Made by a program: the position numbers and the translations under genes. Of a stretch of DNA of 24,000 nt, positions 3,100 to 22,364 are shown one piece after another. The notes beneath the pieces are model-generated. The model was not told where the DNA came from and made no database searches. It was given only the letters and a program-made list of their open reading frames with translations. Position 1 is the first letter of the stretch; each line of letters begins with the position of its first letter. This DNA is from Methanocaldococcus sp. (GTDB lineage Archaea; AGJL01; Methanococci; Methanococcales; Methanocaldococcaceae): the NCBI GenBank assembly GCA_027068365.1, contig JAMOTQ010000014.1:1-24000 (forward strand). The letters run 5' to 3'.

Positions 3100-3431
3100 T
3101 AAAAACTTTTTAAAACTTATCTTTTATTTTTAGGATTTTTATCAAATTTCTAAGGGTAGGGTATTTTAATGATTTTATTTATTTGGATTTATTAAATTAT
3201 AGTGAGTTTTAAAAGAGTTTGATTAATTATTCTTAGTTTGATATTTACTCAATAAATAACTTAGATTTTAGTAATTAAATGTTTTAAAGTTCTTTTTATA
3301 ATTGTAGGGAAAAGTTTAAATATTAGTGAGGGTATATAAATAAAAGTGGTTACCTACCCTTCGACAAAAATGGTATAGAAAAGCTTAAATATTAGAAGTG
3401 AATAAAATAACAACATCTCGAATGATTGCCC
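3100..3431 (+). promoter_or_regulatory. CRISPR leader 1 (long repeat); left boundary approximate
   Basis: Homologous to 9550-9880. The 5' block TTTTTATCAAATTTCTAAGGGTAG(G/A)GTATTTTAATGATTTTATTTATTT and a ~150-nt 3' block are nearly identical, while the middle has diverged. Contains TATATAAATA (3333-3342) and two copies of AAG(T/C)TTAAATATTAG (about 3312-3326 and 3381-3395). Ends directly at repeat 1. Confidence 0.85.
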
Positions 3432-4415
3432 GTTAAAATCAGACCGTTTCGGTATGGAAACAAGATTTTAAAGCTTGCTGATTTTGGTAATGTTAGTTTG
3501 TTAAAATCAGACCGTTTCGGTATGGAAACCCATTCTTGCAGGTATAATTATTATTGTTTTATAAACATAAATGGTTAAAATCAGACCGTTTCGGTATGGA
3601 AACTGAATTTTTGTTGAATTCTACTTATTTAGCTTTCCAATGTGTTAAAATCAGACCGTTTCGGTATGGAAACATGCAAAAGAAACTTACGAAGCTTAAA
3701 AAACAATTAAAAAGTTAAAATCAGACCGTTTCGGTATGGAAACGCAAAGAAAGTAGCAAAGGAAAAAGAACTGGTAGAATATTCGTTAAAATCAGACCGT
3801 TTCGGTATGGAAACTGAATTTTTGTTGAATTCTACTTATTTAGCTTTCCAATGTGTTAAAATCAGACCGTTTCGGTATGGAAACTACTGTCTTTTGGTTA
3901 TCACCCCCGTTATTTGTTGTGTTAAAATCAGACCGTTTCGGTATGGAAACTTAACTTTTATATTGAATACTTTCACTTGGAACTGTTGAAATGTTAAAAT
4001 CAGACCGTTTCGGTATGGAAACTACTGTCTTTTGGTTATCACCCCCGTTATTTGTTGTGTTAAAATCAGACCGTTTCGGTATGGAAACTTAACTTTTATA
4101 TTGAATACTTTCACTTGGAACTGTTGAAATGTTAAAATCAGACCGTTTCGGTATGGAAACTTTCTTAAAAACACTTCTCCTTCAGTTCTACTACGTTAAA
4201 ATCAGACCGTTTCGGTATGGAAACGAACTTTTTATTAAGCTTATTAAGTCATCTAAGTCATTGTTAAAATCAGACCGTTTCGGTATGGAAATATCTATTC
4301 TTAAAATTTTTTTCATTTTTCATATCTCCGTTAAAATCAGACCGTTTCGGTATGGAAATTATGCAGATATTTTCACAATCCTCAACATTAAAAATCTTAA
4401 CGTTAAAATCAGACC
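3432..4415 (+). CRISPR. CRISPR array 1: 14 full 30-nt repeats, 14 spacers (11 unique), plus a 14-nt start of a 15th repeat
   Basis: Repeat GTTAAAATCAGACCGTTTCGGTATGGAAAC. Repeat starts: 3432, 3500, 3574, 3644, 3714, 3785, 3855, 3921, 3993, 4059, 4131, 4195, 4263, 4330, and partial at 4402. Spacers are 34-44 nt. Repeats 13-14 end in T instead of C. Orientation follows from the upstream leader, the ATGGAAAY 3' handle and the degenerate distal end. Confidence 0.97.
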
Positions 4416-4656
4416 TCTTGGGGGTTAAGGTTTAGACATTAATTGGGGCTGAAAGCCCCAACTTAATGGATGTCGGGTATACACACCATAGAGGGGCTAT
4501 GCCCCTCTATTGGGATACTCCCCGTAATTTACACCTCCGAGCGTAAGCGAGGAGGTGTTAGGTTTTGATGAAACTTTTTCTAAAAGTTTCATAACAATAG
4601 GGCGGAGCCCTATGGAATTCAGACCTCTTGGGGGTTAAAGTTTAGACATTAATTGG
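4416..4656 (+). repeat. Array-1 terminal GC-rich hairpin module with a nested 112-bp insertion and a partial second copy
   Basis: 4416-4482 matches 11340-11406 at 60 of 67 positions by hand alignment. 4595-4618 corresponds to 11407-11432. 4483-4594 is extra sequence absent from the array-2 copy. TCAGACC occurs at 4409-4415 and 4619-4625. 4626-4656 repeats 4416-4446 with one mismatch. Confidence 0.8.
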
Positions 4657-9549: not shown

Positions 9550-9880
9550 CCATTTTAAAATTCGATATACTTCTTTTTAAGCTTTTTTATCAAATTTCTA
9601 AGGGTAGAGTATTTTAATGATTTTATTTATTTAGATGCGTTAAATTATTGGGATTTTTAAAAGATTTTAATTAAATGCTTTCAGTTGATAATTTCCACAA
9701 CAATTAATTTTTATTTTGAAAATTAGAGGTTTTAAAGTTCTTTTTGTAATTGTAGAGAAAAGTTTAAATATTTGTGAGGGTATATAAATAAAGGTAGTTA
9801 TCTACCCTTCGACAGAAATGGTATAGAAAAGCTTAAATATTAGAAGTGAATAAAATAACAATATCTCGAATAATTACCCT
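9550..9880 (+). promoter_or_regulatory. CRISPR leader 2 (long repeat); left boundary approximate
   Basis: Homolog of leader 1, with the same TATATAAATA (9781-9790) and AAGCTTAAATATTAG boxes at the same offsets from repeat 1. Confidence 0.85.
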
Positions 9881-11455
9881 GTTAAAATCAGACCGTTTCG
9901 GTATGGAAATTATACAAACAAAACTAATTACTAAAAACGAGTGGCAGTTAAAATCAGACCGTTTCGGTATGGAAATAATGATATGAAGGATTTTATGAAT
10001 GATGCTTTGAGTCAAATGCCTGTTAAAATCAGACCGTTTCGGTATGGAAATTACGTGGTTTTTAAGTTAGGATAATTGACTAATAAGTTAAAATCAGACC
10101 GTTTCGGTATGGAAATCTTTATTTTTTTATCTTCTTTAAGTTATTTTTTATCGTGTTAAAATCAGACCGTTTCGGTATGGAAATTGGTTTTTATTAGTTG
10201 ATTGTATAGTTCTTTTGCATCATTAGTTAAAATCAGACCGTTTCGGTATGGAAATTTGGAACATAAAAAATTAGTTTTAGATGCTTATAAGGAGTTAAAA
10301 TCAGACAGTTTCGGTATGGAAATTTATAAAATAATATCTTTTTTAATCACAAACTATTTTGAGTGTTAAAATCAGACCGTTTCGGTATGGAAATACTCTA
10401 ATTTTTGGAATTTGATACAATTGCCTCCAGATGTTAAAATCAGACCGTTTCGGTATGGAAATACTCACCGAACTAAAAGACCAATACATAACAGAATTAG
10501 GTTAAAATCAGACCGTTTCGGTATGGAAATTTTATAATTACATAAAAACTATGCTCGATATTCCATTCGTTAAAATCAGACCGTTTCGGTATGGAAATAC
10601 ATTAGAAGAAATTTGTGGATGTCAAGTTTGGGATGTTAAAATCAGACCGTTTCGGTATGGAAATTACTTGATAATGCAAAATCAACCAACTCCATAAAAC
10701 CGTTAAAATCAGACCGTTTCGGTATGGAAATTTTTGTAAAATCTTAGCTAATTTATTTTTACACATTTCGTTAAAATCAGACCGTTTCGGTATGGAAATA
10801 TCGGCATAGAATCCACAATCAAAGCAATACATTAGCCTCGAGTTAAAATCAGACCGTTTCGGTATGGAAATAATTTTCAAAATGGATAGGAAATTTAATC
10901 ATAAAATTTGTTAAAATCAGACCGTTTCGGTATGGAAATAAAATTTCAGAAGTTTTAGAACAATATGCAACTATTGAAGAGTTAAAATCAGACCGTTTCG
11001 GTATGGAAATTACTGGAAGGTTTATACAATGATAGTTACAGTATTATTATCTTTGTTAAAATCAGACCGTTTCGGTATGGAAATTAGTTTGTGGCAGAAT
11101 ACTTTAAATCTTGCGTTAATTGGTTAAAATCAGACCGTTTCGGTATGGAAATATAAATATTGATTATTTAATAAGAAATAATCAAGAAAGTTAAAATCAG
11201 ACCGTTTCGGTATGGAAATCACAAAATACTAAGGAAGAATATGAGGTTTTGAATGGAGTTAAAATCAGACCGTTTCGGTATGGAAATTAGCTTCCAATAC
11301 TGCCTGGTGAGCATCTTTCTTTAATGTTAAAATCAGACCTCTCGGAGGTTAAAACTTAGACATTAATTGGGGATGAAAGCCCCAACTTAATGGATGTGGG
11401 GTATACCAATAGGGGGTCTCCCCCTATGGAATTCAGACCGTTTCGGTATGGAAAT
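9881..11455 (+). CRISPR. CRISPR array 2: 21 full repeats, 21 unique spacers, plus a 22nd repeat split by a 93-bp module
   Basis: Repeat GTTAAAATCAGACCGTTTCGGTATGGAAAT. Repeat starts: 9881, 9947, 10022, 10087, 10155, 10226, 10294, 10365, 10433, 10501, 10569, 10635, 10702, 10770, 10842, 10910, 10981, 11055, 11123, 11190, 11258, and 11326 (split). Spacers are 35-45 nt. Repeat 7 carries C to A at 10307. No spacer is shared with array 1. Confidence 0.97.
11340..11432 (+). repeat. Array-2 terminal GC-rich two-hairpin module inside the last repeat
   Basis: Located between the repeat 5' part (11326-11339) and TCAGACC plus the repeat 3' part (11433-11455). Stems at 11361-11392 (13 bp with one bulge) and 11409-11427 (8 bp). 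Confidence 0.8.
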
Positions 11456-12719: not shown

Positions 12720-12780
12720 CTATCTCACCTAATCCATAAGTTTAGCAAATTTTAACAAAAATCCTTTAAAATTTACAAAG

Positions 12781-12832
12781 ATTTGTGGTGATTAATATGG
12801 ATTTTGATATAACTATTATTGGCTATATTGCC
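12781..12832 (+). pseudogene. Duplicated 5' fragment (SD, ATG and 12 codons) of the SemiSWEET gene
   Basis: 52 nt that are near-identical to 12911-12962 (two single-nucleotide indels and three substitutions by eye). The ATG at 12797 opens a 24-codon frame that runs into the hairpin element and stops at TGA 12869-12871. Confidence 0.7.
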
Positions 12833-12910
12833 ATAGGGCTTCGCCCTATTGGGATACCCAGGATGCGTTGATTAGCTAAAAGCTAATCAACGTCTCTTAG
12901 TAAAATCTAT
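12833..12910 (+). repeat. GC-rich palindromic hairpin element (head plus 12-bp-stem hairpin plus TAGTAAAATCT tail)
   Basis: ATAGGGC-TTCG-GCCCTAT (12833-12849), TGGGATACC, CGTTGATTAGCT-AAA-AGCTAATCAACG (12866-12892), tail TCTCTTAGTAAAATCTAT. Same family as 17768-17820, 21890-21970 and 4488-4520. Confidence 0.75.
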
Positions 12911-12926
12911 ATTTGGGTGATTAATA

Positions 12927-13208
12927 ATGGATTTTGATATAACTATTATTGGCTACATTGCTGGAACTTTAACAACGTTTGCATCTCTCCCTCAATTAAT
13001 AAAGTCATTGAAAGAGAAGGATATGAGCAACATATCATTAGCTTTTGTTATAACATTCACAACTGGACTAACACTCTGGCTAATATATGGGATATTAAAG
13101 AATGATTACCCCATAATAGTATTTAATATTTTGTCTTTAATGTTTTGGATTCCAATAACTTATTTAAAGGTTAGGGAGGAGATTGTAAGGAGGAAGAAAA
13201 TTTTATGA
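12927..13208 (+). CDS. SemiSWEET / PQ-loop (MtN3 family) three-helix membrane transporter
   Basis: 93 aa with three hydrophobic helices and an LPQ motif in the first helix (TTFASLPQLIKSL). GGTGA lies 6 nt upstream. Confidence 0.72.
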   Translation: MDFDITIIGYIAGTLTTFASLPQLIKSLKEKDMSNISLAFVITFTTGLTLWLIYGILKNDYPIIVFNILSLMFWIPITYLKVREEIVRRKKIL

Positions 13209-17061: not shown

Positions 17062-17766
17062 ATGAAGTTCGTAGAAAAGACAAAAATAAACTTTGAAAAT
17101 CCCATAGTTATTGAAGCGTTTCCTGGAACTGGATTGGTTGGTAGTATTGCTGGATTTCAAATAATAAAGGAATTAAAATTGAAATATTATGGATACTTTG
17201 AAATTGAAGGGATTCCTCCACTTACGACAATAGAAAAAGGAATTCCCTATCCACCAGTTAGGGCTTATGCAAATGAGGATATAGTTATTTTATTTTCAGA
17301 TGTAATAATTCCACCAATTAAAATAAATGAATTAGCTGAAATTATAGTTAAAACATTTTCAAATAAAAACCCCAAACTGTTCATCTCCCTTGGAGGGGTT
17401 ATGGCTGGAAAATCAGAAAAAGTATTTGGTATAGCCAATAAGGAAGATTTAATAGATAATTTAAAAAATTATGTTGAAATATTTAATTTTGGAGTTGTTG
17501 GGGGCATGGGAGGGAATTTATTAATAAAATGCCAAGATAATGGGCTTGATGCCATTGGCTTGTTGGCTGAAACCGTTGGAATTAGACCAGACCCAAGAGG
17601 AGGGGCTAACCTATTAGAGGTTTTAAATAAGATGTTCAATTTGAATGTAAATATTGAAAATTTACTTAAAGAGGCAGAAGCCATTGAAAATAAACTTAAA
17701 GAATTAGCAGAACAGCATTTAAAAATGATGTCAAAGAGTAGAAAGGAATATCCAATGTATATTTAA
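17062..17766 (+). CDS. PAC2-family (proteasome assembly chaperone-like) protein
   Basis: 234 aa from ATG 17062, preceded by GGTGAGGAG. The EAFPGTGLVGSIAG N-terminal motif is typical of the family. MJ0106 from memory. Confidence 0.7.
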   Translation: MKFVEKTKINFENPIVIEAFPGTGLVGSIAGFQIIKELKLKYYGYFEIEGIPPLTTIEKGIPYPPVRAYANEDIVILFSDVIIPPIKINELAEIIVKTFSNKNPKLFISLGGVMAGKSEKVFGIANKEDLIDNLKNYVEIFNFGVVGGMGGNLLIKCQDNGLDAIGLLAETVGIRPDPRGGANLLEVLNKMFNLNVNIENLLKEAEAIENKLKELAEQHLKMMSKSRKEYPMYI

Positions 17767-17767
17767 C

Positions 17768-17820
17768 CCATGGGGCTTCGCCTATTGGGATGCATTACGC
17801 TCAACCTTTTAGTAAAATCT
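17768..17820 (+). repeat. Short or degenerate member of the GC-rich hairpin element family
   Basis: CCATGGGGCTTCGCC-TATTGGGATGC...TTTTAGTAAAATCT shares its head and tail with 12831-12908. Starts 2 nt after the PAC2-family stop. Confidence 0.65.
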
Positions 17821-17910
17821 TGACCAAAATATGTATTTACATCCTAACGGAAGTAAATGCCTCTTAATTATAATTCGATACTGTTAAAACTTTCAAATTT
17901 TGGTGGTATT

Positions 17911-21695: not shown

Positions 21696-21889
21696 AGTTC
21701 CACGCAATATTTAAATATTCACATTAATTAGAAAAATTAGGAACAATTTAAACACTCTTACTGTTTAATTTGTTTGCCAATTATAAAAGAAAAATTTTGC
21801 AGTTAATTTTTTTTGTAGTTAGTTATTGCTATAATAATTAAAAATTAAAAAAAGCTCAAAATATCTGGTGCAAGGTCTGAGATTTAAAG

Positions 21890-21970
21890 CATAGGGCTTC
21901 GCCCTATTGCTATACCTCCAAAGGATGCATTGCCTCGCTAACGCTCGGCAATGCCTCTTCTAATTAGCTA
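21890..21970 (+). repeat. GC-rich hairpin element next to the tRNA-Leu 3' end
   Basis: ATAGGGC-TTCG-GCCCTAT (21890-21906), TGCTATACC, GCATTGCC-TCGCTAACGCTC-GGCAATGC (21926-21953), CTCTTCTAATTAGCTAT. Flanked by AAATATCTGGTGC at 21858-21870 and 21973-21985. Confidence 0.72.
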
Positions 21971-21979
21971 TCAAATATC

Positions 21980-22067
21980 TGGTGCGGGGGACGGGATTTG
22001 AACCCGCGAACCCCTACGGGACCAGACCCTCAATCTGGCGCCTTTGGCCAGGCTTGGCGACCCCCGC
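21980..22067 (-). tRNA. tRNA-Leu (anticodon GAG), CCA encoded
   Basis: The reverse complement reads GCGGGGG..GCCAAGCCTGGCCAAAGGCG-CCAGA-TTGAGGG-TCTGG-long variable arm-GCGGGTTCAAATCCCGT-CCCCCGC-A-CCA. A TTTATAAATA TATA box lies about 20 nt upstream on the same strand (22084-22093). Confidence 0.9.
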
Positions 22068-22253: not shown

Positions 22254-22364
22254 GCCGAGGTGGCTTAGCTGGTTATAGCGCCCGGCTCATACGGATATCC
22301 CAGCCCAACGGCTGGGTCCTGGGAAACCGGGAGGTCGAGGGTTCGAATCCCTCCCTCGGCACCA
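22254..22364 (+). tRNA. tRNA-Met (anticodon CAU, elongator type) with a 34-nt intron at the canonical 37/38 position, CCA encoded
   Basis: GCCGAGG acceptor pairing with CCTCGGC-A-CCA. Anticodon stem CCCGG/CCGGG, loop CU-CAU-A, then the intron 22292-22325, then A. T arm GAGGG-TTCGAAT-CCCTC. The intron holds a 7-bp hairpin CCCAGCC-CAAC-GGCTGGG. A CAU anticodon could alternatively be tRNA-Ile2. Confidence 0.85.

Follow-up and report, generated by a model that had tools for sequence, protein, structure and literature searches.

What lies at the end of the second CRISPR (short palindromic repeats, clustered and regularly interspaced) array on a Methanocaldococcus sp. contig (JAMOTQ010000014.1, assembly GCA_027068365.1), where the last repeat appears to be interrupted by a GC-rich segment predicted to fold into hairpins? 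The stretch analyzed here, hereafter the window, comprises 24,000 nucleotides of that contig and holds two CRISPR arrays in the same orientation. Unit 22 of array 2 starts at position 11326, after 21 canonical repeats and one further spacer, with GTTAAAATCAGACC (11326-11339); 93 bp follow (11340-11432), and then a second TCAGACC (11433-11439) and GTTTCGGTATGGAAAT (11440-11455). An earlier note on this DNA had placed these segments at exactly these coordinates and had read them as a single repeat split at a 7-bp TCAGACC duplication, the inserted DNA being a miniature element, a trailer cassette of the array or, by analogy only, a structured RNA released by Cas6. Our analysis points, with a little better than even probability, to a copy of a dispersed, non-coding and modular hairpin repeat element of Methanocaldococcus and Methanotorris, which occupies the slot of the terminal repeat and would be flanked by a duplication of its target. 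The GC content of the 93-bp insert is 45.2%, compared to a mean of 26.4% (maximum 40.5%) for 33 spacers and 32.3% for the window; as the earlier note had claimed, the insert is above every spacer, but its margin over the richest one is narrow.

The two flanks of the insert are not the halves of one split repeat. The 30-nt repeat common to arrays 1 and 2, GTTAAAATCAGACCGTTTCGGTATGGAAA plus a final C or T, corresponds to the Rfam family CRISPR-DR13, to which canonical repeats match with 43.4 bits (gathering score 37), and against the same model the right flank (11426-11455) scored 28.0 bits and the left flank (11326-11355) 19.4 bits, both under the gathering score. The model of a sister repeat type, CRISPR-DR39, characterized by a CCTCTTGGAGG hairpin, assigned 32.9 bits to 11326-11356 (E = 0.0018; gathering score 39). 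Some metagenome arrays use GTTAAAATCAGACCTCTTGGAGGATGGAAAT as their normal repeat, and the first 23 nt of the left flank in the window show a single mismatch with the L126 and L135 array repeat GTTAAAATCAGACCTCTTGGAGG and are identical to the L158 array repeat. The last 8 nt of the window flank are unrelated to those of the sister-type repeat: the L126, L135 and L158 repeats carry ATGGAAAT after position 23, and within the GTTAAAATCAGACCTCTTGGAGGATGGAAAT arrays themselves the left flank of the module equals their own normal repeat for 23 nt, with the final 8 nt ATGGAAAT replaced by TTAAAACT. The single split repeat thus gives way to a module bracketed by 23 nt of a sister-type repeat and by positions 5-30 of a second repeat, with TCAGACC being the repeat portion that both flanks have in common. 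Cas6 cleavage makes the last 8 nt of a repeat the 5' tag of the CRISPR RNA (crRNA) (PMC3479195). Since the left flank lacks an 8-nt handle and the Cas6 tag is 8 nt long, the left junction falls about at the cleavage position in the window, in M. lauensis and in another Methanocaldococcus (L165), and the left flank can be read as a repeat that stops about where Cas6 would cleave, with its 5' handle lost.

RNAfold recovered all three hairpins that had been drawn by eye in the array 2 module, namely ACCTC-TCG-GAGGT at the left junction, a stem at 11361-11392, and an 8-bp stem at 11409-11427 that is lengthened by CC/GG pairs; the second of these has 12 bp and one bulged C, not the 13 bp first proposed. 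Taken alone, the array 2 copy folds with a z-score of only -2.1, and 8 of 200 shuffles fold equally well. This modest value, and the fact that terminal repeats are often degenerate, are what an ordinary degenerate terminal repeat beside chance GC-rich sequence has in its favor, an explanation to which we give virtually no chance and which is refuted by four results: the end of array 1 shares 91% identity with an 86-nt stretch of the module; when metagenomes were searched for a 21-base pattern of the module, 41 contigs in three samples matched, with 36 distinct copies (20 complete), to which homologs in five named species are added; the stem of the first hairpin of the module, H1, covaries; and a covariance model, R1, matches.

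Comparison of the copies defines an element with a core of about 75-85 nt, in which an AT-rich 5' part, closed by AAGAG or TTAGAC, is followed by H1, GCATCC or GGATGT, GGGTATCC, a second hairpin (H5) and GG. H1 has a conserved base (C-R-T-T...A-A-Y-G) and an upper part that exists in at least three unrelated versions, one of which bears the apical motif GAGCG-(2-3 nt)-GCGA, the same motif that tops a sequence-unrelated stem in a longer form of the element; H5 is ATAGGG-loop-CCCTAT. The 5' ends are AT-rich and differ among copies, the 3' end is always CCCTATGG, and the conserved 3' unit GGGTATCCCAATAGGG-loop-CCCTATGG identifies the whole two-hairpin architecture elsewhere. The short form of array 2 (81 nt) is built of the AT-rich 5' part with TTAGAC, H1 (11361-11392), the linker GGATGTGGGGTATACC, H5 (11409-11427) and the terminal CCCTATGG. 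The end of array 1 carries the long form, in the order H1, inverted H5-like hairpin, hairpin with the apical motif GAGCGTAAGCGA, AT-rich hairpin and H5, whose fold (z = -7.2) was not equaled by any of 200 shuffles. The earlier note had seen the array 2 module, and had missed this array 1 copy, all copies outside arrays, and the identity of the left junction as the full hairpin of a related repeat type.

Covariance model R1, built from 10 copies, recovered copies on which it had not been trained in M. sp. FS406-22 (61 bits), M. fervens (44 bits) and one metagenome contig (35 bits). In 14 members of the family, pairing at the seven basal pairs of H1 reaches 98%, and four of the seven have changed on both sides; none of 500 shuffles matched the covariation score, and pairing was lost when the partner was shifted by 1-3 columns. 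The H5 stem is preserved through G-C to C-G swaps and paired insertions, and three compensatory pair differences separate the copy at 17765-17870 from its M. fervens ortholog. In a set of 19 distinct copies from array ends, all of the window's type, variable positions amounted to 1 of 24 in the H1 stem versus 6 of 20 in the loop and linker (p = 0.035). Single variants that break stems occur in L118, L135 and L146, and the strand evidence provided by wobble pairs is mixed, with sense-strand U.G in H1 of the window type and of M. igneus, and A.C in L135 and L118.

Several copies have been rearranged internally. The seven-base loop of H1 is CTGAAAG or its reverse complement CTTTCAG on an unchanged stem (inverted in L133, L139 and L145/L155 with respect to other array-end copies), a small inversion of the hairpin tip. 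The H1 3' arm of five array-end copies harbors, at CCCCAACTTA^ATGG (L136 minus strand ~670-860, L130/L142, L133, L127), a nested miniature inverted-repeat transposable element (MITE) of ~105 nt whose terminal inverted repeats (TAACCAATTATCAAAG...CTTTGATAATTGGTTA) are 16 bp long, and the loop of the MITE's own central hairpin occurs in both orientations, GCCCAAAGGGC and GCCCTTTGGGC. In addition, a non-array copy (L133 3900-4040, minus strand) is split between GGGTATC and H5 by a second kind of MITE with termini CACAGGACTTTCACAG...CTGTGAAAGTCCTGTG.

The window contains six copies or fragments of the element, some of them outside arrays. The copy at 12832-12904 lies between direct duplicates of ~52 bp (12780-12831 and 12910-12961, 49 identities), which contain the PQ-loop gene's ribosome-binding site (RBS), its ATG and its first 11 codons, and the corresponding sites of M. 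fervens (L166), M. vulcanius (L167) and FS406-22 (L168) are empty, with a single copy of the duplicated sequence and no element; by this comparison the copy is a genuine insertion that duplicated its target. The duplicates beside the tRNA-Leu copy (21856-21871 and 21971-21985) include the 3' end of the tRNA, and at the PAC2/DUF473 site FS406-22 has only a 24-bp intergenic gap. Further non-array copies were found in M. fervens, where several modules form a cluster, in FS406-22 and M. bathoardescens, and on two metagenome contigs (L123 and L133), the L123 copy being an inverted pair of H5 units between ~36-nt duplicates that cover the RBS and first codons of a gene. Non-array copies lie at unrelated sites, in either orientation relative to neighboring genes; duplication lengths across copies range from 13 to 52 bp (15-16, 19, 24, ~36, ~52), and no flanking duplication was seen at several older non-array copies. 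The miniature element of the earlier note is borne out in kind, by the dispersed family, by the flanking duplications and, for one copy, by the empty sites in three species, but not in its 7-bp TCAGACC duplication, the duplicated repeat stretch being 19 or 24 nt in arrays outside the window; the strictly array-terminal distribution that the note had set against that reading is not what is observed.

Two features of these sites deserve separate mention. The translation start region (RBS, ATG, first 9-11 codons) is duplicated at both protein-gene sites (window 12780-12961, L123 4860-5030), leaving a decoy start upstream of the true one. Just 3' of the tRNA-Leu copy, 21872-21890 (minus-strand reading CTTTAAATCTCAGACCTT) looks like nucleotides 1-14 of the CRISPR repeat (GTTAAAATCAGACC), and repeat-like sequence of this kind also comes after the non-array copy of M. 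bathoardescens (L160, about 3990), from which it follows that some non-array copies may derive from array-end copies or decayed arrays.

The element was located at the ends of at least 20 distinct metagenome arrays from the three samples, where normal repeats and spacers precede the match wherever upstream sequence is available, with the one exception of L125, a tandem restart copy like that at 4616-4656. Complete genomes, sampled piecemeal via their cas2 and secD neighborhoods, added the cas2-adjacent array ends of M. lauensis, L165, M. bathoardescens and Methanotorris igneus (Table 1), and the L137 metagenome array ends ~110 nt upstream of cas2. The slot is that between the last two repeat copies, with the upstream copy cut near the Cas6 position and the downstream copy nearly complete. 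Left and right flanks are identical at 23 of 24 nt in M. lauensis, 22 of 24 in L165 and 18 of 19 in L126, the duplicated repeat stretch being 24 nt long in the first two and 19 nt in GTTAAAATCAGACCTCTTGGAGGATGGAAAT-type arrays, and in M. igneus the two flanks have in common a variant hairpin not seen elsewhere in that array; in these respects the flanks behave like a duplicated target. At three loci (L135, L146/L149/L151, L153) the right flank is followed by one extra spacer and by a decayed repeat, and thus the module occupies a spacer-like slot near the array end and is not strictly terminal. The arrays seen in M. sp. 28A, M. indicus and FS406-22 end in plain degenerate repeats without a module, that of FS406-22 being at the same secD locus as in the window, which makes it a case of presence and absence at one locus. 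A trailer cassette, the second possibility raised by the earlier note, therefore describes both arrays of the window, at least 20 metagenome arrays and four other species, but not these three arrays nor the copies outside arrays.

The FS406-22 array at the secD locus (L168 11310-11890) has body repeats GTTAAAATAAGACC... and a terminal degenerate repeat GTTAAAATCAGACC..., the latter being another last repeat that keeps an older repeat variant. At L137, L160, L164, L165 and L169 the array runs directly into a lone cas2 gene, with cas1, cas4 and the interference genes (type I-D at four of these loci) on the opposite strand, an arrangement in which transcription running on from the array beyond the hairpin cassette may serve to express cas2.

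At no fewer than four different genomic loci the element is preceded by one and the same last spacer, and at one locus two strains differ in carrying the long or the short form; these observations, along with the sister-type left flank in the window, imply that the cassette moved between arrays. In the model that we favor, that of a dispersed element resident in the terminal-repeat slot, the element would enter a terminal repeat and the target duplication would yield the two flanking repeat pieces. The resulting unit (old spacer, handle-less repeat, element, repeat) would be passed between arrays through recombination within repeats or array duplication, and the right flank of array 2 would later have been converted to the repeat type of that array. 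Because spacer acquisition is leader-proximal, new spacers would join at the leader end and the element would be kept at the trailer end, where it would be transcribed as the tail of the precursor of the crRNAs (pre-crRNA). As its 5' handle is missing, it would not be loadable as a guide, and self-targeting of other genomic copies would be avoided. The way in which the upstream repeat is crippled varies, the handle being replaced in the window and M. lauensis and the hairpin being deleted in M. igneus, a pattern consistent with selection against guide RNAs made from an element present elsewhere in the chromosome.

Several observations weigh against this model. In sequence not selected for the element it was present at six of nine array ends, versus 7 loci in ~185 kb elsewhere (Poisson P ~2e-12, to be read with the caution that cas2-adjacent arrays may be orthologous and the six events not independent); neutral random insertion is inadequate for such an excess, which leaves a preference for repeats as target or retention of the element for a function. 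Neutral insertion does not explain its presence in cas2-adjacent arrays across two genera either, and in arrays its orientation is always that of array transcription. The low variability of the H1 stem and the three compensatory pairs with respect to M. fervens indicate constraint in place. The flanks of array 2 are mismatched (left of the sister type, right of the array's own type), and a simple duplication consequently requires later recombination. In M. bathoardescens the upstream repeat is complete, and in M. igneus it keeps its handle and has lost its hairpin through an internal deletion. Finally, the element has no terminal inverted repeats, no fixed duplication length and no transposase assigned to it, a whole-genome gene census having been outside the scope of the analysis; with its fixed 3' end, variable 5' end and duplications of 13-52 bp, no known prokaryotic transposition chemistry appears to fit it.

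The same excess, sense orientation and constraint are what would be expected of a functional array-end cassette, that is, of a hairpin module recruited by the CRISPR locus, transcribed together with the array, excised by Cas6 through cuts in the handle-less repeat and in the final one, and acting as a stable non-guide RNA or structure. Its presence in cas2-adjacent arrays of four species and two genera despite their differing repeat sequences speaks for such a role, as do the compensatory changes in H1, recurrent RNA-like motifs (tandem G.A pairs and GNRA-type loops in GAGCGUAAGCGA), and the GC-rich stems, a requirement for stable RNA in a hyperthermophile of 32% GC. Against it stand the three arrays devoid of the element, including FS406-22 at the same locus, the copies at unrelated sites in either orientation, the stem-breaking variants, and the tolerance of nested MITEs and of loop inversion; its make-up also varies by species, from H1+H5 to two units of H1 with an AT-rich hairpin in M. 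igneus and to the five-hairpin long form. On balance we consider such a function unlikely, if well short of negligible, and the roles that could be proposed for it (definition or protection of the pre-crRNA 3' end, insulation from downstream genes such as cas2, or binding of Cas6 or another protein) share that doubt. Any RNA released by Cas6, the third possibility of the earlier note, would not resemble a crRNA, because the left flank keeps the 5' part of the repeat and its hairpin but not the 8-nt handle.

The position of the element between two repeat copies, exactly that of a spacer, raises another possibility, namely that the adaptation machinery put it there, with Cas1-Cas2 or a related integrase making a staggered attack at the repeat ends and accepting the element, or a DNA copy of it, as an oversized spacer. 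In M. lauensis and L165 the right copy begins with position 1 of the repeat and the 24-nt duplication is near repeat length, both flanks contain the handle in M. igneus, and the 13-52-bp duplications elsewhere are unlike those of ordinary transposases. Canonical adaptation events, however, take place at the leader end and duplicate the whole repeat, whereas the element is distal and its left copy is 8 nt short; moreover, duplication lengths vary four-fold, an insert of 80-190 nt far exceeds the 34-45-nt spacers, and no spacer-like processing marks are visible. We therefore judge this route very unlikely, and equally so its extension in which off-target events of the same kind made the duplication-flanked copies at other sites. 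A combined scheme, to which we attach slightly more weight and still hold to be rather improbable, is that structured elements are preferentially integrated or retained in the terminal-repeat slot by staggered cuts that duplicate 13-52 bp, and are released as handle-less, non-guide RNAs.

With the dispersed hairpin element as the preferred interpretation, we compared it with known families. It resembles the bacterial repetitive extragenic palindromes (REP), their mosaic arrangements (BIME) or BOX elements more than classical MITEs. In common with REP/BIME, REPINs, BOX, ERIC and Correia elements it is a short, non-coding, imperfect palindrome, dispersed and mostly intergenic, and it shows both orientations, inverted pairs (L123), mosaics of a few hairpin modules, and compensatory stem changes. 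Unlike them, it is archaeal, belongs to a hyperthermophile, and is tied to the last CRISPR repeat; REPs have no target duplication and the element has long, variable ones, and REP/BIME systems pair with a RAYT (IS200-like) enzyme, none having been assigned here within the scope stated above. Likeness to MITEs, including archaeal ones, lies in small size, lack of autonomy and coding capacity, multiple copies, flanking duplications, and presence or absence between related genomes, as observed here; in contrast with them, the element lacks terminal inverted repeats, has a variable 5' end and a fixed 3' end (CCCTATGG), and duplicates 13-52 bp in place of a fixed, short target. The true MITEs with 16-bp inverted termini that are nested in some copies look quite different from it.

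CreA of CreTA modules and the atypical terminal guides of CRISPR-associated transposons share with the element a non-spacer unit at the locus edge between repeat-like brackets, one of them atypical. Those units are, however, spacer-sized and unstructured and base-pair with a target, whereas the element is 81-191 nt long, highly structured and handle-less, with copies far from CRISPR. Of the properties of a CreA-type unit (spacer size, functional handle, partial target complementarity), it departs in size, structure and handle, no target search having been made. The palindrome-associated transposable elements (PATEs) derived from IS200/IS605 also possess subterminal imperfect hairpins with an extrahelical base and no open reading frame (ORF), but have a fixed 4-5-nt target, no duplication, and similar end hairpins, in contrast to the unrelated H1 and H5 and the duplications of the element. 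A casposon or Cas1-type product would be recognized by inverted termini, a 14-15-bp or repeat-length duplication, and cas1; here inverted termini and an ORF are absent and the duplications are variable.

Rfam 15 found only tRNAs and CRISPR-DR13 in the whole window, and permissive scans of both modules gave chance-level matches only. Hgc RNAs, K-turns and C/D-box RNAs were rejected as candidates: there was no Rfam match, the UGAUGA of the AT-rich hairpin has no partner D box, and the tandem G.A pairs come without a 3-nt bulge. No match to the element was found in viral contigs searched with two patterns or in 72,556 plasmids, and a search of genome contigs with the 15-mer TTAGACATTAATTGG, which is too short, yielded only chance matches in unrelated bacteria. 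A mobile element targeted by the host CRISPR was likewise discarded: of 635 distinct spacers, not one shared more than 12 nt with any element. A search for a long-range processing helix that would pair the leader with the module gave only short AT-rich matches. Full-text literature searches turned up no account of the element, nor of a cassette at array ends in Methanococcales, with a possible overlap with the GC-rich RNA gene candidates of Klein et al. (2002) in M. jannaschii. What appears new is the tie between a dispersed hairpin repeat family and CRISPR array ends, not a new category of element.

This tie has practical and evolutionary consequences. CRISPR finders would call these ends degenerate terminal repeats, missing a conserved cassette of 80-190 nt and possibly mis-setting boundaries or orientation. 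The cassette, the handle-less repeat and the adjacent old spacer together provide a marker of array ancestry, for array ends exchanged or duplicated between loci. The duplications, which cover an RBS and first codons twice and otherwise a tRNA 3' end and CRISPR repeats, imply a mechanism of mobility that deserves explanation. Should the module be both transcribed and a substrate of Cas6, it would offer a natural instance of structured RNA made from a CRISPR array; and if both terminal-slot integration and RNA release held, it would represent a new class of CRISPR-array cargo, as well as a living case of a target-duplicating insertion that creates a repeat-insert-repeat unit, which bears on how arrays originate and multiply.

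Table 1. Features of the window and of related cas2-adjacent array ends (positions refer to the window).
Feature	Position	Strand	Basis or remark
Array 1 leader	3118-3417		Sequence comparison with array 2 leader
Array 1 left flank, handle-less sister-type repeat (GTTAAAATCAGACCTCTTGGGGG)	4402-4424	+	
Long form of the element, 191 nt, five hairpins	4425-4615	+	
Second handle-less repeat piece (positions 5-23, from TCAGACC), then truncated start of a further element copy (tandem restart)	4616-4656	+	95% identical to 4406-4446
Array 2 leader	9566-9880	+	85% identical to array 1 leader
Array 2, 21 canonical 30-nt repeats GTTAAAATCAGACCGTTTCGGTATGGAAAT, spacers 34-45 nt	9881-11287	+	Rfam CRISPR-DR13
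Array 2 left flank, first 23 nt of sister-type repeat (GTTAAAATCAGACCTCTCGGAGG), without the 8 nt for the crRNA 5' handle	11326-11348	+	CRISPR-DR39, 32.9 bits over 11326-11356; array comparison
Two-hairpin element, short form	11349-11429	+	Covariance model R1, 92 bits over 11349-11430
Array 2 right flank, repeat positions 5-30 (AATTCAGACCGTTTCGGTATGGAAAT), array's own repeat type	11430-11455	+	CRISPR-DR13
Copy between secD and PQ-loop gene	12832-12904	-	Covariance model, 83 bits (sequence was in the training set)
Degenerate old copy between PAC2 and DUF473 genes	17765-17870	-	Orthologous (by flanks) to M. fervens copy, L166 3850-3960
Copy directly 3' of tRNA-Leu(GAG), same strand as the tRNA	21886-21971	-	Flanked by 15-16-nt duplication
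M. lauensis (L164) array end			cas2-adjacent; GTCTAAAATCAGACCCCTAAGGGG - element - GTTTAAAATCAGACCCCTAAGGGGATGGATAT
L165 (another Methanocaldococcus) array end			cas2-adjacent; same plan as M. lauensis, on its own repeat
M. bathoardescens (L160) array end			cas2-adjacent; long five-to-six-hairpin module, complete repeat upstream, decayed repeat downstream
Methanotorris igneus (L169) array end			cas2-adjacent; two tandem units (H1 + AT-rich hairpin) between two decayed repeats

The leaders of the arrays in this analysis are closely similar. The repeats of array 1 span 3432-4359 and include duplications within 3574-4129: the same spacer occurs twice, at 3604 and 3815, and a 138-bp block of two repeat-spacer units is duplicated in tandem (3854-3991 and 3992-4129). 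The final base of the repeat changes from C to T in the last two canonical repeats of array 1 and is T throughout array 2. With regard to the strain, the SecD of the window shares 85-87% identity with its counterparts in M. fervens, M. vulcanius and FS406-22; only metagenome contigs gave an exact match. Elsewhere in the window, a tRNA-Sec is encoded on the minus strand (36-124), and Rfam detected an intron-containing tRNA at 22254-22361 that ARAGORN did not report.

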